DNA of 64,000 nt from an uncultured Chitinophagaceae bacterium (GCA_964647785.1 CAZYJD010000001.1:26148-90147), one strand, 5' to 3'; positions 949-21,567 are shown, numbered from the stretch's first letter. The notes: generated from the letters alone by a model not told the origin. Translations and numbers: made by a program.

Positions 949-1038
949 AATTCCGGCTTGATTTAGCTACAAACTTACACTTTCGACTTTGAAATAATTG
1001 GAGGTACCCCCCGAAGGCTTGCGCACAATTTTTTCACA

Positions 1039-2112: not shown

Positions 2113-2138
2113 GCTCTTCTTTCAAGGCTGCAAAGGTA

Positions 2139-2939: not shown

Positions 2940-3672
2940 ATTGCAAGAGCTGCAACTCCTTTCCATTCCAATAGGCATAACGGTTGTCGCTAACCCATTC
3001 TCCAAGATTCATGTAACGACTGCTTTCAGCAAAGGGTATATCCAATGCCAGGTGGCGATGACCGAAGATATAGAAATCAAAATGTTCTTTTGCTTCTTTC
3101 GCTTTACAGAATTGCAAAAGCCACTCATTGGGTTCGTCAAATACTTCCTCGCGGTTTTCATTGGCCAAACGACTTCGTTTGCTGAAATAATTGGCCACTT
3201 TCATGCCCAGGTCCGGATGTATCCACCGAAAGAGCTCCTGAGCCAATTTGTTTCTGAAAAGCTTACGCAACACTTTGTAGGTGCGATCTCCCGGCCCTAA
3301 CCCATCTCCGTGATGGATGAAAAAACGCTTTCCATCCCAACTGGTTTCCCATTCATCGCTGTACATTTTCACGCCCATCTCCTCTTGCAAATATTTGAAC
3401 ATCCACATATCGTGATTGCCGCGAAACATGTGAATCTGTATGCCTTGATCGCTCAATTCTGCGAGTTTTCCAAGCAAGCGCACATAACCTTTTGGCACCA
3501 CCTGGCGATACTCAAACCAAAAATCGAACAGATCCCCCAAAATGATGATTTCAGTGGCATTCTGGCCCACCGAATCCAACCAGCGAACCAGTTTTTTTTC
3601 GCGTTTAAGACTGCTTTGCCGATCGGGAACCCCTAGATGGATATCGGAAACGAAATAAACGTGATTGGACAT
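2932..3672 (-). CDS. LpxH-family metallophosphoesterase (UDP-2,3-diacylglucosamine diphosphatase-like)
   Basis: Calcineurin-like motifs in order: DIHLG ... ILGDLFDFW ... GNHD ... HHGD ... GHRH. Length 246 aa is typical of LpxH. Confidence 0.75.
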   Translation of the reverse strand: MSNHVYFVSDIHLGVPDRQSSLKREKKLVRWLDSVGQNATEIIILGDLFDFWFEYRQVVPKGYVRLLGKLAELSDQGIQIHMFRGNHDMWMFKYLQEEMGVKMYSDEWETSWDGKRFFIHHGDGLGPGDRTYKVLRKLFRNKLAQELFRWIHPDLGMKVANYFSKRSRLANENREEVFDEPNEWLLQFCKAKEAKEHFDFYIFGHRHLALDIPFAESSRYMNLGEWVSDNRYAYWNGKELQLLQYE

Positions 3673-3675
3673 CTT

Positions 3676-5624
3676 TTACTGAACGCTCAGCTTTAAGCTG
3701 CGATAAACTCCTTTTCCTTTCAAGTGAATCAAATACATACCAGCATTCCAGCTTCGTGTATCGATTGTCTTTTGGTCGTATGCCGATGCACTCGTAAAGG
3801 TTTGTCGATGCACTTCTCTTCCATGAATATCAGTAGCTATGAGTTCAAGTGCTACCCCTTGAAGGTTTTCAACTTCGAGACTCAATTCATTTCGGGCCGG
3901 GTTTGGCCATGCCCTGAAAGCAGCCGTTTCATGTGTTGCCTCATCGGTGTTGAGAGAATAGCTGCTGGTGAAATAATATTCGAGGCTCTTCCCAAAATCA
4001 GGGTTGAGCAGCTCGAGAACAGGGCCATTCGGTTGGCGGAAACGCAAAAAACCGGTTCCCACCTGCGGGATGAGCGGGTAAGCCAAACCAAAGCCTTCTT
4101 TGGTGTTCACGCTAAGTTTGTAGCAGCCTGGATTGAGGTTGAGTTCATCGTTGAACAATTCTCCTCCGGCCATATTGCTTTTTTCATAAACGGTGTTTCC
4201 GTTTTCATCGGTAATTCTCAACTCCACATCGCCTGCAAGGTTGTTGTTTCTCCACCATATGCCCACTTTGCCGGGCAAAGTTTTAGGAATAACAAAACGG
4301 CTTTGCAGCTCATCGTTTTGCGTGTTTTCATCCAGCTGCCCATTGGGTCTTTCAACCCTTGCGGTGAATACCGGATCGGACTCCATGCCTTCCCAATCCC
4401 AAATTTTAAAGGGCAGGTCAATTATTTCGCTTTCCATGAAGGCAAGATTTCCTCGCCAGGTAAAACGGATTTGATTGCCCCCTTTTACCCCATACCAAAC
4501 AGTGCATTCCGTGAGGGCTTCACTTCCTTTATTGCGTATTTTAATTTTGGGTTGGGCACAGGTTGGGTTGATTCTTTTGTGCAACTCCCAATTGCTGGGT
4601 GCCAAAATATCTTCAACCTCTGCATCATAACGAAAGGAGATGTCGCCATATTCGATCAAATGGAGGCTCACCACATAGTTTCCACTGCCCTGTCCTGTAT
4701 TGTCGGCCGGAACTGGCTCTACCCCGTAATCTATCACTGCTTCTTCTTTGCCGCTCAGCCAAGGCGTGAGATCAAAATTGTAATCGGGCACGGGCGCACC
4801 GGGGCACCAACCTGCCCGTGGAGGAGCCCAGTTTCCACCTTGATCAATGATTGGGTTGAGTGCGCATTCATCGTTTTGCCAAATGTCCCATTCGAGTCGC
4901 TGAACACCATCAATGGCAATGTTGTGCTTTTTATTGGCCCATTCACAGCAGTGAATCTTATTGCTTGCAGGATCATAAGTTCCATTATGGCCATGGCCGG
5001 TTATACGGGTAATAAGTTTATAACCCTTGGTATCAGGCATCAGCTGAACAGTATCGGCCTTAAAATGGGTGTCATCGGCTACAAATTTGTATTGCCTCGA
5101 CTCCTTGTTGCGCATGAAATGCACTTTTTTCACTGGGCGGGGAGGGGTGCCAGGAATGAAGGCAAATTTTAAATCAATCAACTCCTGGGTGTTTCCGGCA
5201 CTCAAGGTTACAAGATCGTGCAGTACCGGAGCGTAATCCGTTACATCGTAAATCCATCGAAACCCTTCAGGCCCCAAGTCCAACCCAATGCCATAAGGGG
5301 TGATGAAACGCCCTATCTCATATTGGTTCACCACCCAATTGGTATCAATTTTTCCAACGGTATCGTACAGAATGTTGTAAGTAAGATAATCCCATTCGCC
5401 ACAAGCAAATTGATCTCTGGTGGTTCTCGGGTCGCATTTCAGGGTGTAGTACATGAGTATTTTCTCCCAACTTTTGCCTTCTTCAGGGAATTGCCAGCTT
5501 CCTTTTCTTTTGGTAATGTCTTCAAAGCTGAGGGTTTGCACCCATACGGTATCCTGCGCCCTAACAATGATGCTGGACATGAATAAGATGAACAAGAAGA
5601 AATGGTTCAGTTTTATTTGCATAT
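3676..5624 (-). CDS. Peptide-N-glycosidase F (PNGase F)-like protein with an N-terminal extra domain and a T9SS C-terminal sorting domain
   Basis: Internal motifs EIGRFITPYGIGLDLG and GNWAPPRAGWCPGAPVP match PNGase F (EIGRFITPYW; GNWAPDRAGWCPGMAVP). The C-terminus AWPNPARNELSLEV...GMYLIHLKGKGVYRSLKLSVQ is a type-A T9SS CTD. Start set at the signal-peptide Met MQIKLNHFFLFILFMSSIIVRAQ. Confidence 0.8.
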
Positions 5625-5677: not shown

Positions 5678-8455
5678 TTAGTGTGCTTCCAACCAGTTTT
5701 TGCCCCAGCCCGACTCAACCAATACCGGAACTTCTAAAGGCAAAGCCTCCTTCATTTCCTTGAGTACCATGGCCTCCAAGGCTTCTTTCTCATCCAAAGG
5801 CACATCGAACAAGAGTTCATCGTGCACCTGAAGGGTCATCTTGGAGCGAAAACCACCTTCGCGCAATTTGCGATTGATCCGAATCATGGCCAACTTGATC
5901 ATATCTGCTGCTGTTCCCTGTATGGGGGCATTGATGGCGTTTCGCTCGGCAAAACCCCGTACGGTTTGATTGGCAGAATGAATGTCGCGGATGATGCGTT
6001 TGCGACCTATGAGGGTTTGTACATACCCATTGACCCTGCAGGAAGCGATGGTGTCATCCATATAATTTCGAATGCCCGGGAACTGCTCAAAATATGCATC
6101 GATGATTTCTTTGGCTTCCGAGCGCGAAATATCTACCCGCTGTGAAAGACCGAAGGCTGAAATGCCATAAATGATACCGAAATTCACCGTTTTGGCTTTT
6201 CTACGCATATCGCTATCCACCTCGTCAAGCGCCACACCAAAAACCCTGGCTGCGGTTGCCCGGTGAATATCCAAGCCCTTTTTAAAGGCCTCCATCATCC
6301 CTTCGTCTTTGCTAATGGATGCTATTATGCGCAATTCGATCTGAGAATAATCGGCCGACAACAGCAAGTGATTGTCATCTGCCGGAATGAATGCCTTTCT
6401 GATTTCTCTGCCTTTATCGGTGCGGATGGGGATGTTCTGAAGATTGGGATTGTTGGAACTCAAACGGCCGGTTGCCGCCACTGCTTGATTAAATGAAGTA
6501 TGCACGCGCCCCGTTCGCTCATTCACAAGTAACGGAAGAGTGTCTACGTAAGTGCTTTTCAATTTCTGCACTTCACGGTACTCAAGCACCAAGGCCGGCA
6601 ATGGATGCTTCTCTTTTAAACCCTGTAAAATTTCTTCCCCTGTCTGATATTGTCCGGTTTTGGTTTTCTTGGCCTTGGCATCCAGCTTAAGGTGATCAAA
6701 AAGCACCTCTCCCAATTGTTTGGGCGAAGCCACATTGAATTTGAGTCCCGCGGCTTCGTAAATTTGATTTTCAAGCGAATCTGCTTCTTGTTGAAGTTCA
6801 GAAGAATATTGGTGAAGAAAATCTGAATCGATGCGAACCCCATTGCTCTCCATTTCTGCAAGCACCTCCACCAATGGCATTTCCACCTGGTCAAAGACCT
6901 TTCGAACTTCCAATTCATCCAAAAGTGGGGAAAGTTTTTTCTGCAACTGGAGGGTGATGTCGGCATCCTCTCCTGAGTATTCTGCAGCTTGATCGAGTGG
7001 CACTGTTTCAAAGCCCAGCTGGTTCTTTCCCTTTTTACCAATAAGGCTTTCTATGGATATGGGCTCGTATTGCAAATAGTGCCTTGCGAGAAAGTCCATG
7101 TTGTGCCTTTGGTCAGGTTCTATCAAGTAATGGGCAAGCATGGTATCGAACGCGGGGGTCTTTACTTCGATGCCATAGCGCTTGAGTACCAACATATCGT
7201 ATTTTAAGTTTTGGGCCACTTTCAGAATCTTTTCGTTTTCAAAAAGCGGTTGAAATGCAGCTAAAATTGCCCGGCTCTCTTCAAAATCAAGGCCAGTAGG
7301 AATGTAATAGGCTTCTCCTTCTTTGCAACTGATGGCCAAACCCAGGATGTCGGCCTCCAGGGCATTGAGGGAGGTCGTTTCCGTATCGAAACAAAACACC
7401 TGCTCTTTTTGCAGTTGGGCAATCAAATTGGTGCGCTCTTCTTCGGTGCTCAGCAGATGATATTGGTGATCAACCATTGCGATGTTGCGCAATGCTGCGG
7501 GGCTTTCTTGTGCTTCATTGTTGGAAGGGTTTGCTGCGGGTGCCGGGCTGCTGAACAAATCTCCCTGAACGGCTGCAGCCTGAGGCTCACCCAGCACTTT
7601 CTTGGCCAACGTCCTGAATTCAAGTTCATTGAAAATATCCTGAATGCGTTTGGCATCAGGAGGTTCACAAGTCAAATCTTTTTCATCAAATGCAATGGGT
7701 ACATCCAACAGGATGGTGGCCAGCTTTTTAGAAAGGAAAGCTTGTTCTTTAAAGGCAATGAAGTTTTCTTTCATTTTGCCTTTCAACTCATCGATGTGCT
7801 CATAAATCCCTTCCATGCTCTGGTATTCGGCGATGAGTTTTTTGGCCGTTTTTTCTCCAACTCCTGGCACTCCGGGGATGTTATCCGAGCTATCTCCCCA
7901 CAAACCGAGTATATCAATCACTTGGCTCGGGTGTTCAATGGACCATTTTTTCTTTACTTCTTCCACCCCCAGTATTTCAATGCCATTGCCCATGCGCGAA
8001 GGCTTGTACATATAGGTGTGTGGGCTTACCAATTGAGCAAAATCCTTATCGGGGGTCATCATATAAGTGGTGTAACCGGCTTCTTCGGCCTTGCGCGCCA
8101 AGGTGCCAATGATATCATCCGCCTCGTAGCCATCTTTGGTGATGACGGGTATTCTAAAGGCCTTGATGATTTCGAATACGTAAGGGATGCTTTTGGACAA
8201 GTCTTCGGGCATTTCCTCACGTTGGGCTTTGTAAGCAGGAAAAATTTCATGCCTTTCGGTGGGTGCGGATGTATCAAAAACCACAGCAATATGGCTGGGT
8301 TTTTCTTTTTGCATCAAATCAAGCAGGGTGTTGGTGAAACCAAACATGGCCGAGGTATTCAGCCCCGTGCTGGTGATTCTTGGGTTGTTGATGAAAGCAA
8401 AGTACGCCCGGTACACCAGGGCCATTCCGTCGAGAAGGAAAAGTCGTTTATCCAT
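5678..8455 (-). CDS. polA: DNA polymerase I
   Basis: 925 aa with an N-terminal 5'-3' exonuclease, a 3'-5' exo domain and a polymerase domain carrying DYSQIELRIIA and KTVNFGIIYG motifs. Confidence 0.97.
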   Translation of the reverse strand: MDKRLFLLDGMALVYRAYFAFINNPRITSTGLNTSAMFGFTNTLLDLMQKEKPSHIAVVFDTSAPTERHEIFPAYKAQREEMPEDLSKSIPYVFEIIKAFRIPVITKDGYEADDIIGTLARKAEEAGYTTYMMTPDKDFAQLVSPHTYMYKPSRMGNGIEILGVEEVKKKWSIEHPSQVIDILGLWGDSSDNIPGVPGVGEKTAKKLIAEYQSMEGIYEHIDELKGKMKENFIAFKEQAFLSKKLATILLDVPIAFDEKDLTCEPPDAKRIQDIFNELEFRTLAKKVLGEPQAAAVQGDLFSSPAPAANPSNNEAQESPAALRNIAMVDHQYHLLSTEEERTNLIAQLQKEQVFCFDTETTSLNALEADILGLAISCKEGEAYYIPTGLDFEESRAILAAFQPLFENEKILKVAQNLKYDMLVLKRYGIEVKTPAFDTMLAHYLIEPDQRHNMDFLARHYLQYEPISIESLIGKKGKNQLGFETVPLDQAAEYSGEDADITLQLQKKLSPLLDELEVRKVFDQVEMPLVEVLAEMESNGVRIDSDFLHQYSSELQQEADSLENQIYEAAGLKFNVASPKQLGEVLFDHLKLDAKAKKTKTGQYQTGEEILQGLKEKHPLPALVLEYREVQKLKSTYVDTLPLLVNERTGRVHTSFNQAVAATGRLSSNNPNLQNIPIRTDKGREIRKAFIPADDNHLLLSADYSQIELRIIASISKDEGMMEAFKKGLDIHRATAARVFGVALDEVDSDMRRKAKTVNFGIIYGISAFGLSQRVDISRSEAKEIIDAYFEQFPGIRNYMDDTIASCRVNGYVQTLIGRKRIIRDIHSANQTVRGFAERNAINAPIQGTAADMIKLAMIRINRKLREGGFRSKMTLQVHDELLFDVPLDEKEALEAMVLKEMKEALPLEVPVLVESGWGKNWLEAH

Positions 8456-9624: not shown

Positions 9625-10662
9625 ATGAAGCGTTTTGCATACCTAATTCTCTTATTTTTAGGAACCTACAGTGCAGCGATGGCGCAAGAAGTACGCTACA
9701 AAATCAAGCGAGATAACCCAGAAGATGTAAAAAACCTGATCATTCATCTTGACCCCTGGTTTGCCGATGTTTATTTCACCAACTTGGCCATGGGTTTTTC
9801 AGCACGGGCCGATTGGTTGATCAACAAGGTGGTGGACGTCAGCGTTGAGTGGCGCCGACCCTATTTTGATATGAATTGGCTGGAAGCCAGTACTTACAAA
9901 CTAGCCGATGAGGTAGGCGGTGCTGACATGAAAGACATGGCTTATATGCCACAAAACGGCTTTTCACAATACACCTACTTAGAACCCACCATTCGCCTGC
10001 ACTTGAGCGATAAGATCAAAGAAACCAACCACCACTTGGTGCTTTCAAAATCCAGCTACAGCTCGGGAAATAATAACTACAGCAACACCCAGTTCATCAA
10101 TGTACCTGGAAAATCGAGAAAAATTGTTTCGTTTGAGGGAGCTGCGTGTTGGCTGGATGTGCCGGTGCTGTATAAAGGGTTGTTCAATAGCAACCCTTCT
10201 GATTTTCAGCTTGTACACAAAGAAACCGGTATTGTTTTGCCCGCCACGGAAGATTTTGGAGGAACCATGATGCGCACCCTCACCTTCATCGGCGGATTCT
10301 CATTTCAACGCCTTGACAACCTGAAAGCACTGACCGATAAATACGGTGTGAAATATTCAACGGCATGGACCAATTTCTATTTCGATGTACTGTATGCACC
10401 CGTTGTCAATTTTGACCATGTGGTTGACGATCAGGGTTTGAAATATGAGGTAACCAACCAAAAGGTGAACCGCCTTGGATGGAGATTGGGCTACGCCTTA
10501 AAAAACACCAAAGGAACGGCCCTTTCCATGAAATTTAATGTGGGCAACAGACCGGGCTTTGAAGGCGATAACCCCTATTTCGGATCGCGTTTTTACATGG
10601 ACTTTAACTTTGGGGTATCCATTGCCAACAAAGTGAAACGCTCAACTGAAGAAAAGAAATAA
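9625..10662 (+). CDS. Hypothetical outer-membrane/secreted protein (paralog of 8583..9569)
   Basis: Signal peptide MKRFAYLILLFLGTYSAAMAQ. Motifs FYFDVLYAPV / NRLGWRLG are shared with the neighbour gene. Confidence 0.55.
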   Translation: MKRFAYLILLFLGTYSAAMAQEVRYKIKRDNPEDVKNLIIHLDPWFADVYFTNLAMGFSARADWLINKVVDVSVEWRRPYFDMNWLEASTYKLADEVGGADMKDMAYMPQNGFSQYTYLEPTIRLHLSDKIKETNHHLVLSKSSYSSGNNNYSNTQFINVPGKSRKIVSFEGAACWLDVPVLYKGLFNSNPSDFQLVHKETGIVLPATEDFGGTMMRTLTFIGGFSFQRLDNLKALTDKYGVKYSTAWTNFYFDVLYAPVVNFDHVVDDQGLKYEVTNQKVNRLGWRLGYALKNTKGTALSMKFNVGNRPGFEGDNPYFGSRFYMDFNFGVSIANKVKRSTEEKK

Positions 10663-11534: not shown

Positions 11535-12127
11535 AAATTGCCTGTTACCCGAACAACAATTTCATTTCTTCGATTGAGCAAACGAAAAGGAGGATTGTAG
11601 GCCAATAGCGTAAATTTTCCATCATGCGAAACACCTTCTTTTTCAAGCAATCGTTGAAGCTTTTTGCTGTATTTCTCTATTCTGCGCTCTGTTGCCCAAC
11701 CACCAAAGCGAATGGCAGCCAGCGTTTCGGATGGTTGCTCTTCAAATTGAACCAATTGGTTGTTGGGTGCCGGTAAGTCGTTCAATTGCATGCCCTCTGG
11801 AAAGCGAAACTTCATGACCATATTCGAATCTGTAACCTGCATGGCAACCGGACTGGTCATGGCTATTTTCTCCCCGCGCTGGTTGTTGCCAAAAATATAA
11901 GATGCGAGCGTTCGAAACCCCTTTGAACTGGCTGTGCGGAATGGCTCCGACTGCATTTCCACACGACTGTAGAGTGCTGCTTCGTATAACCGGATTTCAA
12001 AATTCTTAAACTTTTTAAGCACCTTATAAGGCGCCTGCTCGGTATGATCACTGCTTTGTTTCGAACCTATTTGTGCAATGGCTGAAAGGGAAATGACCAA
12101 AACTGCGATGATGAGTATTGTTTTCAT
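11531..12127 (-). CDS. SOUL/HBP-family heme-binding protein, secreted
   Basis: Signal peptide, then YEIRLYEAALYS...SKGFRTLASYIFGNN..., typical of SOUL heme-binding family proteins. 198 aa. Confidence 0.65.
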   Translation of the reverse strand: MKTILIIAVLVISLSAIAQIGSKQSSDHTEQAPYKVLKKFKNFEIRLYEAALYSRVEMQSEPFRTASSKGFRTLASYIFGNNQRGEKIAMTSPVAMQVTDSNMVMKFRFPEGMQLNDLPAPNNQLVQFEEQPSETLAAIRFGGWATERRIEKYSKKLQRLLEKEGVSHDGKFTLLAYNPPFRLLNRRNEIVVRVTGNF

Positions 12128-12369
12128 GTGAATTTTAATATTAAACAGGCGGGGTGAACAAAACGTTCTTGTTGGCCCCTTATTTTCAAATTACACAACT
12201 TCAGGGCACGACCAACTGCATGATTTGTTCAATGGGTAAATATCCGTTCTGATATGCCCCCCAATAAACTCGTTAGAAAAATTAAGATGCTTTTTCAGTG
12301 TGCTGGTTTGCATATAGAAAAATCCTTCGCCCATTTTTCTATATTTGGCAGTATGAAAATTTAAACCCT

Positions 12370-13311
12370 ATGAAAAAAACTTTTACTTCCCTTTTAGTAT
12401 TAATCACCTTCACAGCCTTCGGGCAGAACAAAAAAGAACAAATTGCCATTTTGAGTGCAAGGGTTGACAGCTTATTTCAGGCCCTGAATACTGAAAAAAG
12501 CGAACGAGCAAGCACAGAAAAGGAGATGCAATCTCAAATATCACTGCTTCAAAGTCAATTGACCAATGAGCAGAATGAAAAGAAAACCGTGGAAGCAAAT
12601 CTTGCACTGCGCACCCAAGAACTAAGCAGCCAGAAAGAAGAAAATCAGAACATTACGGCTCTGCTCAATGAAACGGAAAAAGCGCGTTTAGCTCTAGAGG
12701 AAAAATACAACAACACCTCTGCGCAGTTATCGGAAACGGAAAAAGCGCGTTTAGCTCTGGAGGAAAAATACAACAACACCTCTGCGCAGCTTAAGGAAAC
12801 GGAAAATGAACGCATGGCGCTGGTAGAAAAGTACAACACCACTTCCGAAGAACTGATTGAACAAATCAATCAAAATGAAACGCTTGTGGCATTGCAGCAA
12901 AAGACCATGGAAGCCATGAAAGAAAAAGATCTTCTCATTGAAGAATTAACCGACCACAACTCTTCTCTCTCAGATCAGCTTGCATCGCTGAATGAACCTG
13001 AATACCAACCAGAAGATGCAATGATCTATGATAATGAAGAGGCCAACGATGGTGGATCCAATGCAGGAAATCCCAAGTGGGATAAGGTGCTGGATGATTA
13101 TGAGAACTACGTTGTTGAATACGCCAAGTTCTATAAAAAAGCCATGAGTGGCGATATGTCTGCCATGTCAAAATATCCGGCCCTCATGGAAAAAGCCACC
13201 AACTTATCCAAAAGTCTTGAAGGGGCCCAAAACAGCAATGATTTGAGCCAAAAGCAAATGAATCGCTTCATTCAAATTCAAGGCAAGTTCATGGAAGCTG
13301 TGGGCTATTAA
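12370..13311 (+). CDS. Secreted coiled-coil protein with 21-aa tandem repeats
   Basis: Signal peptide MKKTFTSLLVLITFTAFGQ. Heptad-like Q/E/L-rich sequence. ETEKARLALEEKYNNTSAQL repeated three times. Confidence 0.6.
   Translation: MKKTFTSLLVLITFTAFGQNKKEQIAILSARVDSLFQALNTEKSERASTEKEMQSQISLLQSQLTNEQNEKKTVEANLALRTQELSSQKEENQNITALLNETEKARLALEEKYNNTSAQLSETEKARLALEEKYNNTSAQLKETENERMALVEKYNTTSEELIEQINQNETLVALQQKTMEAMKEKDLLIEELTDHNSSLSDQLASLNEPEYQPEDAMIYDNEEANDGGSNAGNPKWDKVLDDYENYVVEYAKFYKKAMSGDMSAMSKYPALMEKATNLSKSLEGAQNSNDLSQKQMNRFIQIQGKFMEAVGY
12670..12858 (+). repeat. 3 tandem copies of a 63-bp in-frame repeat inside the coiled-coil gene
   Basis: Units begin at 12670, 12733 and 12796 (gaaacggaaaaagcgcgtttagctct(a/g)gaggaaaaatacaacaacacctctgcgcag...). 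The third copy is degenerate. Confidence 0.85.
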
Positions 13312-13341
13312 CGAGAAGCTTAAAAAGTCCTTTTAAACCAA

Positions 13342-13396
13342 GGGTGCAAGAATGTCCGCATCAGCAATTGATGGTCATTTTTGCACCCTTTTTTTA
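13342..13396 (+). terminator. Rho-independent terminator-like hairpin between convergent genes
   Basis: agggtgcaagaatgtcc...ggtcatttttgcaccct followed by a TTTTTTT run. The stem is long and imperfect with a large loop. Confidence 0.5.
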
Positions 13397-13549
13397 TGCT
13401 TGCTCATTGGCTGGTTTTGATCTGATTCCAAGCACGCTTTTAATGTGGTCAGCTCGCTTTGTCTTTGCATTCAAAACGTACTTGGGTCTTATTACCTCTG
13501 AACAAGGCTGGCATTCATGAAGTTTCTTCGCAGCATGAATCATTTGAAA

Positions 13550-15460
13550 TCATTCATGCAGGTAAGTTATACCATCCGTAGGTCTCGAATAATTGATGTT
13601 GGGGTAGGAATAGGTTGGGAAACCATTGCTCGTGGTGAATTCACCCGACTGTAACCGAATTCTGCGATATCTCGATTTCAACTCAGCGCTCACCCGAACA
13701 TTTGCAGAGCTGAACCTTGAAATATACAAACCCTTGGTATCTAGCCACCAATATTCTGAACCAAAGGTAAAAAGCAATTTACCCTGCGAAATGCCAATGA
13801 AATTATACAAAGGTGGAGGATCCCAAGATGTGCTGCCGGCATCGACCATTCTGGATTTCTTTGTGAGTACATCATACACCTTCAGCTGACGATAATAACC
13901 CGAACTCGTGCCTTTGCTGATGTATACCTTATTCTCATAAATTATTTGATGATCATCAATAACCACCGGATTGTAACCCTGCTGCACAGGTACTGTTTTA
14001 GTGGTAGGAAAAAGGGTGTCTTTTGTATATTTCCATATCCTTGCACCGATTAATATGAACGAATCATTGATGATTTGGGGGACAATATTTAACCTTGATC
14101 CTTTGTCCGGGTTTTTCAAGCTGAACATTGCATCTCGGGCACGGCTGTAAAACGAAACATCACCGGCTTCATAAAAACATTTGCCTCCACCGCAACGCCA
14201 AAGATCTCCATCATTCAACCGGATCATATTTCCATAATGATCTATGACTTGGCCGAGGCTTGAGAAATTGCCCACTTTGAGGTCAGCCGAGTCCAAATGC
14301 CCCACATTCGAGTTCACGTAGAAATAAGGGTATCGCATTAAAATATTGTTGCTGTTCAATTTCTTGTTTGCATAAGCGGTATCCACCCGACCCGAGGGCT
14401 GCTTTTTAAGAATAAAGGTGTCAACTCGGTAATAGGCCGTATCTGCCTCTAACCACAACAAAGCACCCGATAAGTTATAATCCACTCCAAACCACATATC
14501 CGGAATTGTCCCGTTTTGTCCACTGCCACCCCCCGAGTTGGTAATAAAGGCTTTAACTGCCTCTAAAGGAACCTTGCCTCCTCCATTGCTCAATACAAGG
14601 GTGTCATTGATGAGCGCAATGCGCTGTATCTCATTGGTGCTATCGTTGTCCAGATTCTTCGGAAAATTCAGCTTTACCGCATTGCCATTCGATATCTCAA
14701 GACTGTCGCCTTTTACTGATAAGGTTTGCAATTCATTGCTGGGATCATTGTCCAGATTGGCAGGAAAATTCAGCTTCACGGTATTGCCATTTGATATGCC
14801 TAGACTATCTCCATTCACTGAAAGCGTTTGCAATTCATTGCCCGGATCATTGTCGAGATTGGCTGGAAAATTCAGCTTCACGGTATTTGCTCCGGAGATC
14901 GATAGGCTGTCGCCCTGTATGGCCAGCGATTGAATCTCATTGCCCACCACCGTATCGCGATCCCTGTTGCTTAAATAGGTGATTTTATCCGTCACGACGG
15001 CAATGGCACTGTCCGTTTGATTCGACATACTTTGCTCCGAGAAAAAGGCGTAAGGCACCGACCAAAACTTTTCCAATGAAGTGAGGGTGTAAGTGTTGTC
15101 ATTGTTAAAATCAATTTCCACTTGAAGGTGGGCTGTTCCCAATTCCCATGGGATGGCTTCAAAATCACCTGAAATGACCGTTCCCTGCCCTATGATGAGG
15201 TTAAAAACCCCGTATGCATCGGTGTTCGTTTCGTGGTATTCCTGATAGCTTTGTGTGCCATTGGGATATTGATCGAAAATGGTGAAACGCACCTTGATGG
15301 CTTTGTTGGACCAATAGACCGATTGGGGGTTTTCACCCGCCACGGAATAAGACCCATCCTTTACTGCCACCGCTTGGTAGGCAATTCCCTGCGGTGTATT
15401 CTGCGCTTGCACAGAAAAAGCAAGCGCGAAGCCAATGAGTAGAAGTTTTATTCTTTTCAT
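13550..15460 (-). CDS. Repeat-containing secreted/surface protein, paralog A (636 aa)
   Basis: Signal peptide MKRIKLLLIGFALAFSVQAQ. The N-terminal ~150 aa are identical to paralog B. 34-aa tandem repeats (NELQTLSVNGDSLGISNGNTVKLNFPANLDNDP). A unique ~330-aa C-terminal domain. Confidence 0.7.
   Translation of the reverse strand: MKRIKLLLIGFALAFSVQAQNTPQGIAYQAVAVKDGSYSVAGENPQSVYWSNKAIKVRFTIFDQYPNGTQSYQEYHETNTDAYGVFNLIIGQGTVISGDFEAIPWELGTAHLQVEIDFNNDNTYTLTSLEKFWSVPYAFFSEQSMSNQTDSAIAVVTDKITYLSNRDRDTVVGNEIQSLAIQGDSLSISGANTVKLNFPANLDNDPGNELQTLSVNGDSLGISNGNTVKLNFPANLDNDPSNELQTLSVKGDSLEISNGNAVKLNFPKNLDNDSTNEIQRIALINDTLVLSNGGGKVPLEAVKAFITNSGGGSGQNGTIPDMWFGVDYNLSGALLWLEADTAYYRVDTFILKKQPSGRVDTAYANKKLNSNNILMRYPYFYVNSNVGHLDSADLKVGNFSSLGQVIDHYGNMIRLNDGDLWRCGGGKCFYEAGDVSFYSRARDAMFSLKNPDKGSRLNIVPQIINDSFILIGARIWKYTKDTLFPTTKTVPVQQGYNPVVIDDHQIIYENKVYISKGTSSGYYRQLKVYDVLTKKSRMVDAGSTSWDPPPLYNFIGISQGKLLFTFGSEYWWLDTKGLYISRFSSANVRVSAELKSRYRRIRLQSGEFTTSNGFPTYSYPNINYSRPTDGITYLHE
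14560..14960 (-). repeat. In-frame 102-bp tandem repeat array (about 3 good copies plus degenerate flanking copies) in paralog A
   Basis: Unit starts at 14623, 14725 and 14827 on the + strand (tttgcaattcattgc...ggaaaattcagcttcacggtattgcc...). Period 102 bp = 34 aa. Confidence 0.85.
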
Positions 15461-15471
15461 TTGATGTAGAT
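14850..15471 (-). repeat. Segmental duplication copy 1 (about 620 bp; the last ~430 bp are 100% identical to 16423..16853)
   Basis: Direct comparison of the two stretches. Offset 1382 bp. Identity includes the start codon and the 11 bp upstream of it. Confidence 0.9.
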
Positions 15472-15504
15472 CATTTGAATATAAACGCCCTTAAGGCTGA
15501 TAAA

Positions 15505-16842
15505 TCAAAACTGAATGATTGCAAATCCTCTGGCATAGGGCGGTGCACAACAGTCAGGCACTTCATTCCCCACATAACCATTGGGTATGTAGGCGGGAAT
15601 CACCAATGCTTTGTAATCGTAGCCTATGACACTTCCATTTGTTCCGCGAGCTCCTGCCCTGGCGCAACCACCGGGACAATAGGCATTTCCTCCATTTCCT
15701 CCTCCCTCGGCATAATAATTTCCGAAATAGGTGTTGGTTGAATTGGTTTTTACATCCCCAATGGTTATCGCATAACTTTGTCCTGGAACAACAGTGATGG
15801 TATCTCTGAGGTAACCACCATTGCCACCAACCCCACCATTTGCTTCAGAATTCGTTGAATTGTTGCAATACCCATTGCAATATGCTCTGTTGCCATTTTT
15901 ACCTCCCCCTCCCCAGAGTTCAATGATGATGCGATTCACTCCTTGAGGACATTTCCAAAGCGTGTCTGAATCAAACCCTATAAACCGGCCGCTTGAAAGA
16001 AAAGTGGTGGTATCCTGATAATTTCTGATGTAATCGTTGATGTCTTGCAATGCAATGTTGCCCCCACCATGACTCAAGCGGATGGTGTCATTTGTTAGTA
16101 CAATCCGCTGTAACTCATTGGTACTATCGTTGTCCAAATTCTTTGGAAACAATAACTTCACAGTATTGCCATTCAATATCTCAAGACTGTCGCCTTTTAC
16201 CGATAATGTTTGCAGTTCATTGCCCGGATCATTGTCGAGATTGGCTGGAAAATTCAGCTTCACGGTGTTCGCTCCGGAGATCGATAGGCTGTCGCCCTGT
16301 ATGGACAGCGATTGAATCTCATTGCCCACTACTGTATCGCGATCCCTGTTGCTTAAATAGGTGATTTTGTCCGTCACCACTGCAATGGCACTGTCCGTTT
16401 GATCCGTTACGCTTTGCTCTGAGAAAAAGGCGTAAGGCACCGACCAAAACTTTTCCAATGAAGTGAGGGTGTAAGTGTTGTCATTGTTAAAATCAATTTC
16501 CACTTGAAGGTGGGCTGTTCCCAATTCCCATGGGATGGCTTCAAAATCACCTGAAATGACCGTTCCCTGCCCTATGATGAGGTTAAAAACCCCGTATGCA
16601 TCGGTGTTCGTTTCGTGGTATTCCTGATAGCTTTGTGTGCCATTGGGATATTGATCGAAAATGGTGAAACGCACCTTGATGGCTTTGTTGGACCAATAGA
16701 CCGATTGGGGGTTTTCACCCGCCACGGAATAAGACCCATCCTTTACTGCCACCGCTTGGTAGGCAATTCCCTGCGGTGTATTCTGCGCTTGCACAGAAAA
16801 AGCAAGCGCGAAGCCAATGAGTAGAAGTTTTATTCTTTTCAT
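15505..16842 (-). CDS. Repeat-containing secreted/surface protein, paralog B (445 aa) with a glycine-rich Cys-containing C-terminal domain
   Basis: Same signal peptide and N-terminal 150 aa as paralog A. Three 34-aa repeats. C-terminus WGGGGKNGNRAYCNGYCNN...GGVGGNGGY...EGGGNGGNAYCPGGCARAGARG...CCAPPY. Start ATG overlaps the stop of the upstream gene (ATGA). Confidence 0.7.
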   Translation of the reverse strand: MKRIKLLLIGFALAFSVQAQNTPQGIAYQAVAVKDGSYSVAGENPQSVYWSNKAIKVRFTIFDQYPNGTQSYQEYHETNTDAYGVFNLIIGQGTVISGDFEAIPWELGTAHLQVEIDFNNDNTYTLTSLEKFWSVPYAFFSEQSVTDQTDSAIAVVTDKITYLSNRDRDTVVGNEIQSLSIQGDSLSISGANTVKLNFPANLDNDPGNELQTLSVKGDSLEILNGNTVKLLFPKNLDNDSTNELQRIVLTNDTIRLSHGGGNIALQDINDYIRNYQDTTTFLSSGRFIGFDSDTLWKCPQGVNRIIIELWGGGGKNGNRAYCNGYCNNSTNSEANGGVGGNGGYLRDTITVVPGQSYAITIGDVKTNSTNTYFGNYYAEGGGNGGNAYCPGGCARAGARGTNGSVIGYDYKALVIPAYIPNGYVGNEVPDCCAPPYARGFAIIQF

Positions 16843-16853
16843 TTGATGTAGAT
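16232..16853 (-). repeat. Segmental duplication copy 2 (pairs with 14850..15471)
   Basis: See copy 1. Includes the last 11 bp of the upstream small CTD gene (atctacatcaaatga). The same relic is found upstream of paralog A. Confidence 0.9.
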
Positions 16854-17297
16854 GAGTTTTTTACTGTAAACGCGATGATCGGCAAGGGTGAGATGAATGG
16901 TGTACAAACCCGATGAAAAATTCTTCATGGATATGCGTTTAGCCCAACCCTGGTAACAGGTTTTACCAAACACATCCACCACCACCACATCGGTATAGGT
17001 TTCATTTGTTTCGATGTTCACCCAATCGGAAGTTGGATTGGGGTAAATGCTCAACTGTATGTCTTCGAGCATGGATTGAGGTCGCAAATGAAGAAAGGGT
17101 TTTGTTTGTATGCTCCGTCCGTCACTGAATTTATTTGCATTCACAACAGGAGAAGAAACCGGGTTAAAGGCCACCACGGCTGTTTTGCCCGAAACTGAAG
17201 AACCAAAGGAGCCAATGGCAGATCGTGCAATTTTCTGTGCGTCGGCCTCACTGCAAAGCAAAGTGAAGACCATTAGAAAGAATGCTGTGCTTCTCAT
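16839..17297 (-). CDS. Small T9SS C-terminal-sorting-domain protein (152 aa)
   Basis: Signal peptide MRSTAFFLMVFTLLCSEADAQ. C-terminal IYPNPTSDWVNIETN...SGLYTIHLTLADHRVYSKKLIYIK matches the type-A T9SS CTD pattern. 4-nt overlaps with both neighbouring genes. Confidence 0.7.
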   Translation of the reverse strand: MRSTAFFLMVFTLLCSEADAQKIARSAIGSFGSSVSGKTAVVAFNPVSSPVVNANKFSDGRSIQTKPFLHLRPQSMLEDIQLSIYPNPTSDWVNIETNETYTDVVVVDVFGKTCYQGWAKRISMKNFSSGLYTIHLTLADHRVYSKKLIYIK

Positions 17298-17917
17298 TGG
17301 TGAATTTCTATTCTAAGACCCAATGAAAGCTGATTGATTCTCAATTCATCTGCATCTAAATCAGCATTTGACAGCATATAGGCGTATGAAACATAAGGAT
17401 GGATGGCCAAATGATCTGCAGCATAGCCTGCAAAATTGATTTCGCCACCTAGGAAAAAGTTGGTTTTGGTGAACAACTCTTCTGTTTTGCTAACCGCCCC
17501 ATTCACCATTTGCGAGGATGCCGTTAGAAAGCTGTAAGAAGGCACTATGGCAAACGACTGAATGAAGAATTCCCGGGGTGTTTCCTTGCCCTGTGAAAGC
17601 GGCAATGCATAGCGTATGGGAAGGTCGAGTTTTAATGAAGAGTGGGTGAATGAAGTGCTCAATTCGCTGTTTACTGCGCTGGCTTGCACCGTAGAGGCAC
17701 TGAGCAATGTGGAGACCGACAATTTCTTGAGATCACCAAAAAACAACCCAATGCGGGTGTCTGCATGGTAGTGGCAATCATAGTTCAGTTCACCATTTGT
17801 TCCGCTGAACTGCACCTGAGGCTGGCTCAGGCCCTGATAAAATTGCAGGCCTATTTTTTGGGCAAAAGTGCCCAAAGATCCTAAAAGCAGTAGACCCACC
17901 ATTATACTTTTCTTCAT
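17294..17917 (-). CDS. Small outer-membrane beta-barrel protein (porin/OmpA-like family)
   Basis: 207 aa with a signal peptide, alternating hydrophobic beta-strand pattern, aromatic-rich strands and a C-terminal EIHQ. First gene of the operon. Confidence 0.6.
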   Translation of the reverse strand: MKKSIMVGLLLLGSLGTFAQKIGLQFYQGLSQPQVQFSGTNGELNYDCHYHADTRIGLFFGDLKKLSVSTLLSASTVQASAVNSELSTSFTHSSLKLDLPIRYALPLSQGKETPREFFIQSFAIVPSYSFLTASSQMVNGAVSKTEELFTKTNFFLGGEINFAGYAADHLAIHPYVSYAYMLSNADLDADELRINQLSLGLRIEIHQ

Positions 17918-18039
17918 CTGACAAAAATATTGAAAACCGCCAGATTGCCAATGAATGGCGCTTTGGGTGGGCTAATGCTCTTATAAAGTAGCACATGCAG
18001 ATGAGAAAATGACGAGGACCTAAGATGTACAATTGAAAT

Positions 18040-18066
18040 AAACCAAAAGCGCCCCTTCAAAGGGGC
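18040..18066 (-). terminator. Hairpin terminator downstream of the 18094..18522 gene
   Basis: gcgccccttcaaaggggc with a T-run on the minus strand after the stem (cttttggtttatttc). The hairpin is also followed by T's on the + strand. Confidence 0.55.
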
Positions 18067-18093
18067 ATTTTTGATTTTAAGTTAGGTAAATGT

Positions 18094-18522
18094 TCAGATG
18101 GAAGTCCTTAATTTTCCATTCCGAGCGACATAGAATAAACCAATGATAGGAAGTAAACTAACAATCATCAACGGAATTGGAGGATGCGCAGAAGAACCCA
18201 TCATTAAACTAATGAAATCTGGAAGCGTCCAAGCTAGATGCAAAATCCCTAACAAAAATGTTGCTGCTTTTAAAGAACTTAATTCTTTCAACGTCAGGGC
18301 ATATATGGTTGCAGCCAAATAACCTGCCATGATGAATGCAAATACAAAGAGCATGGTATCTAGAATGGCTATTGCACCAGCATTTTTAGCAAGACCTTCG
18401 ACACCCATATCTGCTATCATCATTTCTTTCATTTCACCGCCGCTCATCGCAAGGAATAAAGGAATAGACTGCAACAGATCTAAGATTAATGTTAGGACTA
18501 AAATGTTTTTAAAGTTTTTCAT
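18094..18522 (-). CDS. Small integral membrane protein (about 4 TM), paralog 1
   Basis: 142 aa, mostly hydrophobic helices. Shares a PPIPLMIVSLLPI-type motif with the next gene. Confidence 0.55.
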   Translation of the reverse strand: MKNFKNILVLTLILDLLQSIPLFLAMSGGEMKEMMIADMGVEGLAKNAGAIAILDTMLFVFAFIMAGYLAATIYALTLKELSSLKAATFLLGILHLAWTLPDFISLMMGSSAHPPIPLMIVSLLPIIGLFYVARNGKLRTSI

Positions 18523-18559
18523 AGTTGTGATTTGTTTGTTGTAATTCTTGAAGTTTTTC

Positions 18560-18955
18560 TCAAACTCTGTTAGACTCTTTTCTCATAGAAATCACGCTAA
18601 GCGCTATAAAAAAACCAAAGAGGACAAGAGCAGGAATTGGTGGTTGTAGTCCTGGCCATTGAACCATCGCATTAAATGCTTGTAATAATACGACCCCACT
18701 CATGGCAATAATTCCTTTAAAAAGATTTATAGCAAAATCTCCTGAGCTATTTCGCAATAAAAGTACCATAATGCCCACACCGAGGGCAACAGAGGCCAAT
18801 GCTTGATGCATAGCTGTTCCAACATCCAATGCCTGTTTCGATAATTCAATACCAGCAAATGCTTGAGATGTAATTTGTTCTGCACCAAGGAAAAATCCAA
18901 TTCCTTGCAGTGCCAATAATCCACCAATGATGGACAAGGATAAATTTGATTTCAT
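18560..18955 (-). CDS. Small integral membrane protein (about 4 TM), paralog 2
   Basis: 131 aa, hydrophobic. PPIPALVLFGFF motif parallels the neighbour. Confidence 0.55.
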   Translation of the reverse strand: MKSNLSLSIIGGLLALQGIGFFLGAEQITSQAFAGIELSKQALDVGTAMHQALASVALGVGIMVLLLRNSSGDFAINLFKGIIAMSGVVLLQAFNAMVQWPGLQPPIPALVLFGFFIALSVISMRKESNRV

Positions 18956-19461
18956 AAATAAAATTCTTTAAGACGCTCACAAGGTAGGTGATTCTAAGTA
19001 GCTAACGGATCAATTAAAAAATGTCTTTTTACAAGGCGTTGAAATGGTAGAACAAACTCAAACCAAAATTCAACAACTACTTCCAAGAAGTATATGGACC
19101 ACACTTGGTTTCCTTTTACAGAAAAACATTTGAAATGGATGAGGTGTATTTAGAGGACTTGGAATGGATGTTCAAAGACGGATACGATGTTCAACGAATC
19201 CTCCAAGACCTTCGATCTCTGATTGAATGAGAAGAGAATAGGTGAAAGTATCTGTCGGTTCACAACAACCCCTTCAGGTAAAACTTGGAGGGGTTTTTAC
19301 ATTTACAAGTGTTTCATTGGAGGTTACTCACGACCCGTTTTGTCAAGAGATTCACCCTGTTTAAATCTAAGTTTTTCCCCAATTTGTTCTACACTTTGTT
19401 CTGTAAATTTCAAAAACTCTTTTTTGGTAAATATCTTAATATTTTGATAATCAATATTTTG

Positions 19462-19533
19462 TGGTCCCGCCAGGAATCGAACCTGGATCTAAAGTTTAGG
19501 AAACTTCTATTCTATCCGTTGAACTACGGGACC
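19462..19533 (-). tRNA. tRNA-Arg (anticodon CCT)
   Basis: Minus-strand sequence GGTCCCGTAGTTCAACGGATAGAATAGAAGTTTCCTAAACTTTAGATCCAGGTTCGATTCCTGGCGGGACCA folds as a cloverleaf. Acceptor GGTCCCG/CGGGACC, anticodon loop TTCCTAA, T-arm CCAGG-TTCGATT-CCTGG. Confidence 0.85.
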
Positions 19534-19566
19534 ATTGCAAGGGCAAAAATAATAAACCGCCTTGCC

Positions 19567-21567
19567 TTAGCGTATCACGCTGCCATTTTCGGCATCGGGC
19601 TGGGGTTCTACAAACATGAGCCGCCCATCGGCATTTTCTGAGAGTAAAATCATGCCTTGTGATTCCACCCCTCTGATTTTGCGGGGCGCCAAATTGGCCA
19701 AAAGCATCACCTTTTTACCAACAAGCTCCTCGGGTTCGAAATGCTCTGCGATGCCCGAAACCACGGTGCGCTCATCCAAACCCGTATCGAGCCTGAACTG
19801 CAACAACTTATCGGCCTTGGCAACTTTTTGGGCTTCGAGTATGGTGGCCACGCGTAAATCCATTTTCATGAAGTCGTTGAAAGTGGTCTCTGCTTTGGCT
19901 GCAGGCAGCACGGGGCCCTCTGCTTTGGGTTTGGCCAATTTTTCCAACTGCTGCCCGATGAGCTCGTCTTCCACTTTGGTGAACAACAAACTGCTCTCCG
20001 CTATGGCGTGACCGTTTTGCAGCGCTTCATCTGCAGAAAGGTTGAGCATGTTCAGCATTTTTTGAGCGGTTTGGGGCAAAAATGCCCTCGCCTCCAACGC
20101 AAACAAACGGCACAGCTCCAAGCAAATGCGCAGGGTATCGGCCACGGCTGCTTCATCGGTCTTGATGAGCTTCCAGGGTTCTTTTTCAGTGATGTATCGG
20201 TTGCCTAATCGCGCAATATTCATCAGCTCTGCCTGCCCTTCCCTGAATTGATATTTGCCCAGGCAATGGTTCATTTTTTCAGCATGGGCCTTGGCTTCAG
20301 ACAAGATGCTTTCGGCTTCGGCCGTGGCTTTTAATTCGGGCACCTTGCCACCAAAATATTTATGGGTGAGCACCATCACGCGGTTCACAAAATTGCCGAG
20401 AATGGCCACCAGCTCATTGTTCACCCTTGCCTGATAATCTTTCCAGGTGAAATCGGCATCTTTGGTTTCAGGTGAAATGGCAGTGAGCACATAACGCAAC
20501 TCGTCTGTTCGGCCGGGCAGATCCTCAAGGTATTCGTGCAGCCAAATGGCATGGTTGCGACTGGTAGAAATTTTTTGTCCTTCAAGGTTTAAAAACTCAT
20601 TGGCGGGCACATCTTCCGGCACAATGAATTCTCCCAGCTCATGCAAAATGGCCGGGAAAATGATGCAGTGAAACACGATGTTGTCTTTGCCGATGAAATG
20701 CACCAAACGGGTGTTGTCATCCTTCCACCATTTCTCCCAGTCGTCGGTGAGTTCGCGCGTGGCACTGATGTAGCCGATGGGTGCATCGAACCAAACGTAC
20801 ATCACCTTTCCCTCGGCGCCTTTCAGTGGCACGGGCACCCCCCAATCTAAATCGCGGGTCATGGCCCTGGGTTTCAGACCGTCGTTCAGCCAGCTTTTGC
20901 ATTGTCCGTACACATGGCTTTTCCAATGCTTGTGGTCTTCTACATACCGATCGATGAAACGCTCTTGCAATCGATCCAAGGGCAAATACCAGTTCTTGCT
21001 TTGTTTCAATACCGGCTTGCTGCCGCTGATGGCCGAGCGTGGATTTTTAAGTTCCATGGGGCTCAGCGTGGCCCCGCATTTCTCGCACTGATCGCCATAG
21101 GCATCGGGGTTTCCGCAGCGAGGACATTCGCCCATGATGTAGCGATCAGCCAAAAACTGCGCCGCTTCTTCATCGTAATATTGCTCGCGCGTTTCTTCGT
21201 CGAAGCCGCCTTTTTCGTACAGTTTCAAAAAAAGTTCGCGGGCGGTTTGATGGTGTATGTCATGGGTGGTTCGCGAGAAAACATCAAACTCCAGCCCAAA
21301 TGCTTTCAACGATTCACTGATGAGCGAACTGTATTCATCCACCACTTGCTGCGGGGTTTTGCCTTCTTTTCGCGCCTTCATGGTAATGGCAACCCCATGC
21401 TCATCCGTTCCGGAAACAAATAAGATTTCCTCGCCCTTCAGGCGCAAATGCCGCGCGTAAATATCAGCCGGAAGCAAACAGCCCGCAAGGTGCCCGATGT
21501 GAATGGGGCCATTGGCATAAGGCAAGGCTGCAGTAACCAGGGTGCGGCCAGCGGTAGATTTTGTCAT
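19567..21567 (-). CDS. metG: Methionyl-tRNA synthetase with a C-terminal tRNA-binding (EMAP/Trbp111-like) domain
   Basis: HIGH motif (PIHIGHLAG), zinc knuckle CPRCG...CEKCG, KMSKS-like KISTSRN, and the C-terminal [14 protein letters not shown]...GVESQGMIL domain. Confidence 0.97.

Follow-up and report, generated by a model that had tools for sequence, protein, structure and literature searches.

Probable recombinational homogenisation of the shared N-terminal handle of two tandem fibre-like genes in an uncultured marine Bacteroidia bacterium

Two adjacent genes, here called fibre genes B and A, were analysed in a stretch of 64,000 nucleotides from an uncultured Chitinophagaceae bacterium (GCA_964647785.1 CAZYJD010000001.1:26148-90147; the window), in which they follow the genes for a 207-aa secreted protein (OMP207) and for a 152-aa protein with a C-terminal sorting domain (CTD152). 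The 5' ends of B and A are identical letter for letter over a block that encodes their N-terminal part (the handle), while their 3' parts encode unrelated tips. The letter-perfect identity of the two handles indicates concerted evolution by homologous recombination. For the fuller reading, that recombination keeps the handles of tandem fibre genes identical while the tips keep separate, older histories, and that the blocks mediate loss and gain of tip cassettes, we estimate a probability of about three in four.

Identification of a 433-bp identical block in fibre genes A and B

By direct string comparison, positions 15039-15471 were found to equal 16421-16853 base for base, forming a direct repeat of 433 bp with an offset of 1382 bp. 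The base-for-base identity of both regions, claimed in an original prediction made from the sequence, is thus real, and is 2 bp longer than claimed. The repeat search listed only a 300-nt family (D1) and not the 433-bp pair; the identity was established by the direct comparison. Copy 1 of the block (16421..16853, minus strand) consists of the last 11 bp of the CTD152 gene and codons 1-141 of B, and copy 2 (15039..15471, minus strand) of an 11-bp non-coding relic of the CTD gene 3' end (15461-15471) and codons 1-141 of A. The block therefore takes in 11 bp of upstream sequence, the signal peptide and the N-terminal beta-sandwich domain (N-domain) in full. The 11 bp before each ATG (atctacatcaa) are common to both copies. 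In front of B they are the last codons of the CTD gene (IYIK-stop), the TGA of which overlaps the ATG of B (ATGA), while in front of A they are non-coding and follow a unique 33-nt spacer (15472..15504, minus strand) between the stop codon of B and the second block. The sequence comparison agrees with the predicted status of the 11 bp as gene end before B and relic before A, and such a relic implies a CTD-proximal origin of the segment that was duplicated or converted.

Between codons 1-141 of A and B a single nucleotide difference was found, a silent change in codon 141 just beyond the perfect run, and codons 142-200 contain 13 differences. The predicted extent of identity, over the start codon, the signal peptide and about 145 codons, holds at the protein level, where identity is unbroken to residue 144, but the perfect nucleotide run ends within codon 141. 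The adjoining segment of A (14744..15038, minus strand), which encodes a linker helix and the first 34-aa repeats, is 87% identical to 16126-16420 of B, and the whole ungapped similarity (14744-15471 versus 16126-16853) extends over 729 bp at 94.65%. Past an indel of one 102-nt (34-aa) repeat unit, the similarity reaches about 14600 in A and 16084 in B; the shared region covers about 770 bp of B and about 870 bp of A, more than the 620 bp or so first estimated. Beyond about residue 300 of A and 272 of B, similarity was undetectable by tblastn, in accordance with the predicted unrelatedness of the gene parts downstream of the repeats.

The differences between A and B are distributed most unevenly, with 0 in the 433-bp block and 39 in the adjoining 296 bp (13%). 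At the flanking divergence of 13%, the block is expected to hold 57 differences. A clean run of at least 433 with 39 differences in 729 columns was obtained in 0 of 200,000 permutations (p<5e-6; analytic bound 2e-14), and the perfect run is not due to chance. The step from 0% to 13% divergence implies that two copies that had already diverged were overwritten recently, and not that a whole gene was freshly duplicated. Of the proposed recent duplication or gene conversion, recombinational homogenisation was supported, while a single recent whole-gene duplication fits less well with the 13%-diverged 296 bp next to the block and with the old tips.

Probable concerted evolution of the handle

The handle was compared among related loci (designated by L numbers), the homologs of which are all from uncultured marine Bacteroidia. 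The block of B differs at 21 nucleotides from its orthologs in L010 and L011, a relative of about 95% identity; among the 18 changed codons, 14 changes are silent and 4 lead to replacement. This divergence is at the same level as in the rest of these loci, and the 14 silent codons between orthologs exclude constraint at the nucleotide level. The two paralogs of the window, 100% identical in the block, are thus closer to each other than B is to its ortholog in L010 (95%), and identity between A and B is mosaic, its tract ending abruptly and taking in silent sites. Between fibre genes of one locus, identity across the first 450 nt was 98.7% for the window, 91.6% for both L027 and L006, 89.8% for L028, and 88.9% between the second and third fibre genes (g2 and g3) of L029. 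The first 450 nt of L027 are at most 70% identical to those of every other genome, and the L006 paralogs carry internal tracts of 98-99% identity within an 85% background. The N-domains of the window are 99% identical to each other and 72% identical to either L002 paralog.

As to the tips proper, A-type tips of other lineages share 34-38% amino acid identity with A, and B-type tips about 37% with B; under a looser 250-residue window, the identity to the same type in the L002 lineage is 37-43%. A B-type gene is followed by an A-type gene in L002, in the same order as in the window. In other genomes as well, the N-domains of paralogs cluster mostly by genome and the tips by type. Between the first fibre gene of L027 and the second of L002 (L027_g1 and L002_g2), the tips are 79% identical, compared with 65% for the N-domains, 40% for CTD152 and 51% for OMP207. 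These observations indicate that tips move between lineages while handles are homogenised within a genome. The identity of the N-domain correlates with that of the CTD protein (r = 0.94) and of the OMP protein (r = 0.92) over 45 non-independent locus pairs, a correlation that linkage alone would also give. Block position 231 (window 16612 and 15230) is A in both copies of the window, the allele of B-linked blocks, and G in the blocks linked to the A tail in L001 and L030; the alleles at this single site fit conversion from B to A.

Concerted evolution of bacterial paralogs, tandem or dispersed, by gene conversion is exemplified by tufA/tufB in Salmonella, the opa/pil loci of Neisseria and the emm-like genes of streptococci. 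The window resembles such systems in that paralogs within the genome are closer than orthologs, tract borders are sharp and silent sites are homogenised. It differs in that only the 5' module is homogenised and the 3' modules are non-homologous, so that the homogenised tract ends at a domain boundary, and in that the repeats appear also to mediate the presence or absence of a cassette. In L002, a 16-nt spacer (9985-10000; catctaaatacatcaa) is located before the second fibre gene and is closer to the relic of the window than to the 3' end of the CTD gene of L002 itself (cttattaa). This likeness suggests that the relic or junction may be old, or functionally constrained, for instance by translation re-initiation.

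Possible loss or gain of a tip cassette in other samples

In four contigs from four other samples (L030, JGI 3300043420; L031, JGI 3300010389; L032, SRR29986457; L033, SRR29965075), the CTD gene leads through the ATGA overlap into the block and the A tail, with no B gene. These contigs are colinear with the window apart from the absent 1382 bp. The B-less layout is either the exact product of a crossover between the blocks or the substrate for insertion of a cassette. It matches the deletion of the intervening module that had been predicted as possible, deletion and ancestral state being both compatible with it. L010 and L011 show the order CTD gene, block and B tail, and the first 11-16 nt of the 33-nt spacer are also found at the ends of these two contigs.

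L030 is a mosaic, in which the OMP/CTD part (1-628) is 95% identical to the window and the block with A (629-2826) 99.2% identical, the switch lying within about 55 bp of the block start. Strains may have recombined at the block, or the metagenome contig may be chimeric. In L001, an independent assembly with 99.6-99.8% identity to the window, a scaffold gap of 100 N is located exactly at the block; the contig on the left runs 55 nt into the block before it stops, and the one on the right begins with the first base of the block. From the usual behaviour of de Bruijn assemblers, we read this break as a repeat with two entries.

Fibre proteins and their relationship to the MAT family

Fibre gene B (15505..16842, minus strand) encodes 445 aa with a signal peptide, the N-domain, a helix, three 34-aa repeats and a glycine-rich tip. 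Fibre gene A (13550..15460, minus strand) encodes 636 aa, in which the same handle precedes four 34-aa repeats and a tip of about 330 aa that is beta-propeller-like. As read from the sequence, both proteins start with a signal peptide ending in …SVQA/QN (the slash marks the cleavage site). The 102-nt repeats form an array of four units in A (14534..14941, minus strand) and of three units in B (about 16018-16323, minus strand), with the consensus NEIQTLSxxGDSLSISxGNTVKxxFPxNLDNDxx; the one-unit indel also appears in the A/B protein alignment, and Tandem Repeats Finder reported a period of 102 at 14642-14945 in A. In AlphaFold (AF2) monomer models, the N-domain was predicted to be a beta-sandwich (residues 25-133; predicted local distance difference test score, pLDDT, 70-94), the only confident part of the model for B, and the shaft stayed at pLDDT<50. 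Across 61 homologs, about 50 invariant columns lie in the N-domain. Pfam holds no model for this domain, neither A nor B matched a PDB sequence at E<=1, and an exact look-up of protein B returned no record.

Weak but consistent similarity was found to Bdello_MAT_N (NCBIfam NF053851), with scores of 22.9 bits (E 6e-5) for A and 24.1 bits (E 3e-5) for B, residues 12-96 aligning to model positions 3-78 of 162. The curated cut-off of this model is 60 bits; 24 of the 61 family members match at E<=0.01 (best 6e-6), and none of the 61 reaches the cut-off. A phmmer search of the full library with the N-domain alone gave 18,550 cluster representatives (clusters at 50% identity), 4,018 of them at E<=1e-10; the proteins are 170-1760 aa in length, and the domain nearly always occupies residues 1-145. 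One of these, P0205 (916 aa), matches the N-domain of the window at a phmmer E of 5e-37 and passes the Bdello_MAT_N cut-off at 65.7 bits. The scores below cut-off and the transitive link through P0205 together point to remote homology, and not to membership of the Bdello_MAT_N family. P0205, which matches the N-domain in six separate stretches and ends in a FlgD_ig-type domain, is a useful bridge sequence from the Bacteroidia family to the Bdellovibrio MAT family.

The architecture is mosaic, with a conserved N-terminus followed by diverse and unrelated tips, including Gly_rich_2, beta-propeller-like, PTL_trimer, collagen with DUF7151, and Peptidase_S74 types; sampled distant members carry collagen triple-helix shafts and Peptidase_S74, DUF7151 or Gly_rich_2 tips. 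The predicted constant handle with alternative cassettes was thus encountered across hundreds of homologs. From their sequences, we assign A and B, as short members, to a very large MAT-like superfamily of modular fibre proteins. These fibres are probably trimeric, as relatives with the N-domain carry modules that form obligate trimers, collagen triple helix and S74. Display on the cell surface would be in keeping with the signal peptides and with the operon partners, a predicted outer-membrane barrel and a protein with the sorting domain of the type IX secretion system (T9SS). By analogy, A and B may be trimeric surface adhesins of the MAT type.

MAT proteins have an invariant N-domain near the cell surface and variable tips that undergo 'tip swapping', and their cell-surface anchor is stated to be still unidentified (Caulton et al. 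2024, PMC10769870). With the MAT proteins of Bdellovibrio bacteriovorus, the proteins of the window share a Sec signal, an invariant domain at the extreme N-terminus, a repetitive shaft, unrelated and swappable tips, several paralogs per genome, tips resembling phage fibre domains, and the sequence similarity of the N-domain. They differ in being much shorter (445-636 versus about 600-1100 aa) and in having a shaft of 34-aa repeats in place of the beta-prism repeats known from MAT structures. Their host is no described predator but an uncultured marine Bacteroidia bacterium, and the partnership with an outer-membrane beta-barrel and a T9SS-sorted mini-protein is undescribed for Bdellovibrio, which to our knowledge has no T9SS. 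Gene conversion is not mentioned in PMC10769870, and homogenisation of the handle at the nucleotide level is not reported there.

Likeness was also observed to the mosaic tail fibres of phages and tailocins, in which a conserved N-terminal anchor doubles as recombination substrate and tips are exchanged horizontally. B residues 268-405 weakly match tail-fibre families of PHROG, and two tip homologs of B (P0002 and P0008) exceed the Pfam cut-off for Gly_rich_2 (PF21722). Unlike phage and tailocin fibres, however, the fibres of the window are chromosomal, carry Sec signal peptides and have no phage or tailocin structural genes nearby. A prophage origin was rejected, and B had no tblastn match in 50,697 phage genomes. 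Foldseek hits to viral models with suggestive names (baseplate, tail fibre, glycine-rich) were discarded, as TM-scores were 0.1-0.2 and the query was a low-confidence model.

Organization of the fibre operon

The operon starts with OMP207 (17294..17917, minus strand), the signal peptide of which ends in …TFA/QK. OMP207 is probably a small outer-membrane beta-barrel, as judged from matches of 11 of its 15 orthologs to Pfam PF13505 OMP_b-brl (best E 1.8e-5); the copy of the window itself did not match at E<=1, and a PDB profile search with OMP207 gave nothing meaningful. In CTD152 (16839..17297, minus strand), a signal peptide is followed by a passenger of about 60 aa, conserved and with residues invariant across 14 loci, and by a T9SS type-A C-terminal sorting domain (CTD), detected both as Pfam PF18962 Por_Secre_tail (6.6e-10; 39.6 bits against a cut-off of 27) and as TIGR04183 (5.5e-6, above cut-off). 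CTD152 is connected by 4-nt ATGA overlaps to OMP207 upstream and to fibre gene B downstream, and A and B are probably co-transcribed. A candidate promoter (17924..17951, minus strand), weak and found by consensus scan only, lies 3' of a terminator-like hairpin (18067-18050) that closes the gene preceding the operon. The signal peptides of all four operon proteins are apparently cleaved before Gln (…FA/QK, …DA/QK, …QA/QN). Cleavage before Gln, which gives pyroglutamate N-termini, is typical of secreted proteins of Bacteroidota and known as the 'Q-rule'.

The trio of OMP, CTD and fibre genes was found in almost every related locus with upstream sequence, and the overlaps wherever open reading frames (ORFs) could be delimited. 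The fibre position is occupied by one to three genes per locus: proteins of 506 and 701 aa in L002, 654/670 and 477 aa in L006, 671 and 463 aa in L027, a fragment with 642 and 334 aa in L028, and three fibre genes in L029. The operon has in common with T9SS type-A cargo systems a genuine Por_Secre_tail protein, CTD152. It differs from them in that the fibres are devoid of a CTD, the sorting domain being confined to the separate CTD152, and in that a passenger of only about 60 aa makes CTD152 look less like an enzyme or adhesin than like an adaptor or anchor. No account of an OMP-CTD-fibre operon of Bacteroidia turned up in a literature search. A MAT-like fibre operon coupled to a T9SS-sorted mini-protein, widespread in marine Bacteroidia, is apparently undescribed so far.

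Alternative explanations

The identity could merely reflect youth, if the B cassette was integrated once into a CTD-block-A arrangement or a tandem duplication took place once, very recently. The B-less arrangement in four samples could then be ancestral, the 11-bp relic marks one discrete junction, and zero differences are compatible with an age below about 0.3% divergence (P(0)=0.27 at the divergence between the window and L001). We nevertheless regard such a single event as unlikely, since the homologous neighbour of the block is 13% diverged and diverged copies therefore predate the homogenisation; moreover, distant L002 also has the tandem of B-type and A-type genes, several independent lineages have homogenised paralog handles, as in the tracts of L006, and a cassette from another strain would yield chimeric and not identical blocks. 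Quite improbable is an artefact of assembly, by which one repeat node was used twice or CTD-B and CTD-A haplotypes of a population were misjoined in tandem. The window is apparently from a metagenome-assembled contig, the repeat is longer than short reads and k-mers, its close relative L001 is broken at exactly the block, and the spacer/block junction was not recovered elsewhere. A graph-based assembler may thread one repeat node twice, and the 'perfect' identity could thereby mask a very few real single-nucleotide polymorphisms; even so, near-identity against a 13% flank would stand. The spacer-to-relic junction requires real spanning reads, the left contig of L001, which ends one k-mer (55 nt) into the block, is read as the second block entry, and tandems of B-type and A-type genes are unambiguous in L002 and L004, two independent assemblies with handles only 87% identical.

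Programmed variation by a shufflon, an invertible cassette, phase variation or a diversity-generating retroelement (DGR) is very improbable. A constant 5' part with variable 3' cassettes does resemble the shufflons of pilins and tail fibres, and a tyrosine recombinase gene (Phage_integrase, PF00589) is located immediately upstream of the OMP-CTD-fibre module in L012 (7621-8868). The copies of the block are however direct and not inverted, each gene is a complete ORF with a start codon of its own, and no recombinase is encoded in the operon or by its immediate neighbours. A shufflon or invertible cassette was rejected for lack of inverted repeats of at least 30 nt in 13000-20000 and of an adjoining recombinase. 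A DGR was likewise rejected, because the repeats are identical and lie at 5' ends, and with zero mismatches the adenine-biased pattern between template and variable repeats is absent; a reverse transcriptase was not searched for in the rest of the window. We give next to no weight to purifying selection, whether on the handle or on an embedded regulatory or RNA element, as the cause of nucleotide identity without recombination. The block does coincide with a complete and strongly conserved protein domain, but orthologous blocks at 95% average nucleotide identity differ at the 21 sites described above, mostly silent by codon, selection at the protein level cannot freeze about 140 silent sites, and the identity runs on into the non-coding 11 bp.

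Several findings weigh against the preferred reading of recombinational homogenisation with cassette exchange. Perfect identity and B-A linkage rest on an assembled contig and not on reads; the tandem linkage of B and A was seen in this lineage only in the contig of the window; and the JGI metagenome collection yielded no spacer/block junction (no hits, and then 5 unrelated chance hits). The B-less contigs could represent the ancestral state or an assembler path through the repeat, and not deletions. Clustering of handles by genome is not universal, as L002_g1 is nearer to L012 than to L002_g2. In L029, where three fibre genes stand in tandem (920-5516), the handle of g1 is only 67% identical in nucleotides to those of g2 and g3 (89% between these two), and homogenisation thus does not always include the CTD-proximal copy. 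At the protein level, neither A nor B reaches the Bdello_MAT_N cut-off for family membership, and a T9SS CTD was not detected in either by Pfam or NCBIfam.

Proposed mechanism and significance

We propose that the identical blocks were left by a recent exchange between the paralogs through homologous recombination, whether by gene conversion or by unequal crossing-over. The handle would then evolve in concert within the genome, while the tips would hold separate and much older histories. The blocks may act as portable homology: a crossover between the copies would remove B and give the CTD-block-A order, and a reciprocal or Campbell-type event would add a cassette. If cassettes are removed and added through the blocks, tip repertoires should vary between strains. 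Handles presumably have to remain able to fit a common partner from the upstream genes, CTD152 and/or OMP207, a need that would promote their homogenisation. A more specific but doubtful proposal is that the outer-membrane beta-barrel and CTD152 form a dedicated platform for T9SS-dependent export and anchoring. The short passenger of CTD152 would in that case be exported by the T9SS and attached to the surface of the cell, the fibres, devoid of a CTD, would dock onto it or hitch-hike with it through the handle, and selection for fit to a single shared adaptor would drive homogenisation of the handle at the nucleotide level. Such a platform, if real, would constitute a plug-and-play system of surface display, with tips traded between strains of marine Bacteroidia.

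The mechanism of recombination behind the identity is ordinary, and the context of the fibre operon is moderately new. The repeat provides a clean natural example of how modular surface proteins may stay compatible at one end and diversify at the other, one homogenised 433-bp block serving, on our reading, both as conserved 'plug' and as recombination substrate for adding, removing and exchanging tips. A large family of N-terminal domains, not curated by Pfam, connects the MAT fibres of Bdellovibrio to abundant uncultured marine Bacteroidia. The three-gene operon with its T9SS-sorted mini-protein offers a testable candidate for the anchor of MAT-type fibres, which was left unidentified in PMC10769870. 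As the blocks break short-read assemblies, tip repertoires are probably under-counted in metagenome-assembled genomes (MAGs).

Neighbouring genes and related loci

Two small membrane-protein genes (18094-18522 and 18560-18955) are located just upstream of the fibre operon, and a tRNA-Arg(CCT) gene (19461-19533, minus strand) lies between them and metG. The genomic neighbourhoods of the module vary between loci, and its location in quite different surroundings elsewhere hints at island-like mobility. Convergent to fibre gene A is a gene for a 337-aa secreted, coiled-coil-like protein (12298-13311, plus strand) without a Pfam match. It contains a 63-nt tandem repeat (86% identity) at 12670-12842, where the L001 scaffold has a second gap of 100 N. 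Two separate OMP-CTD-fibre modules were detected on different contigs (L019 and L021) of the same MAG, SRP219642_co3_85, and the contig of L012 stops directly after its first fibre gene. In L028, a 122-aa ORF (7636-8004) separates the CTD gene from the first full-length fibre gene, one of the tips is PTL_trimer (PF26696), and a 1511-aa protein with Laminin_G_3/Lectin_C domains is encoded downstream of the fibres (12060-16595).

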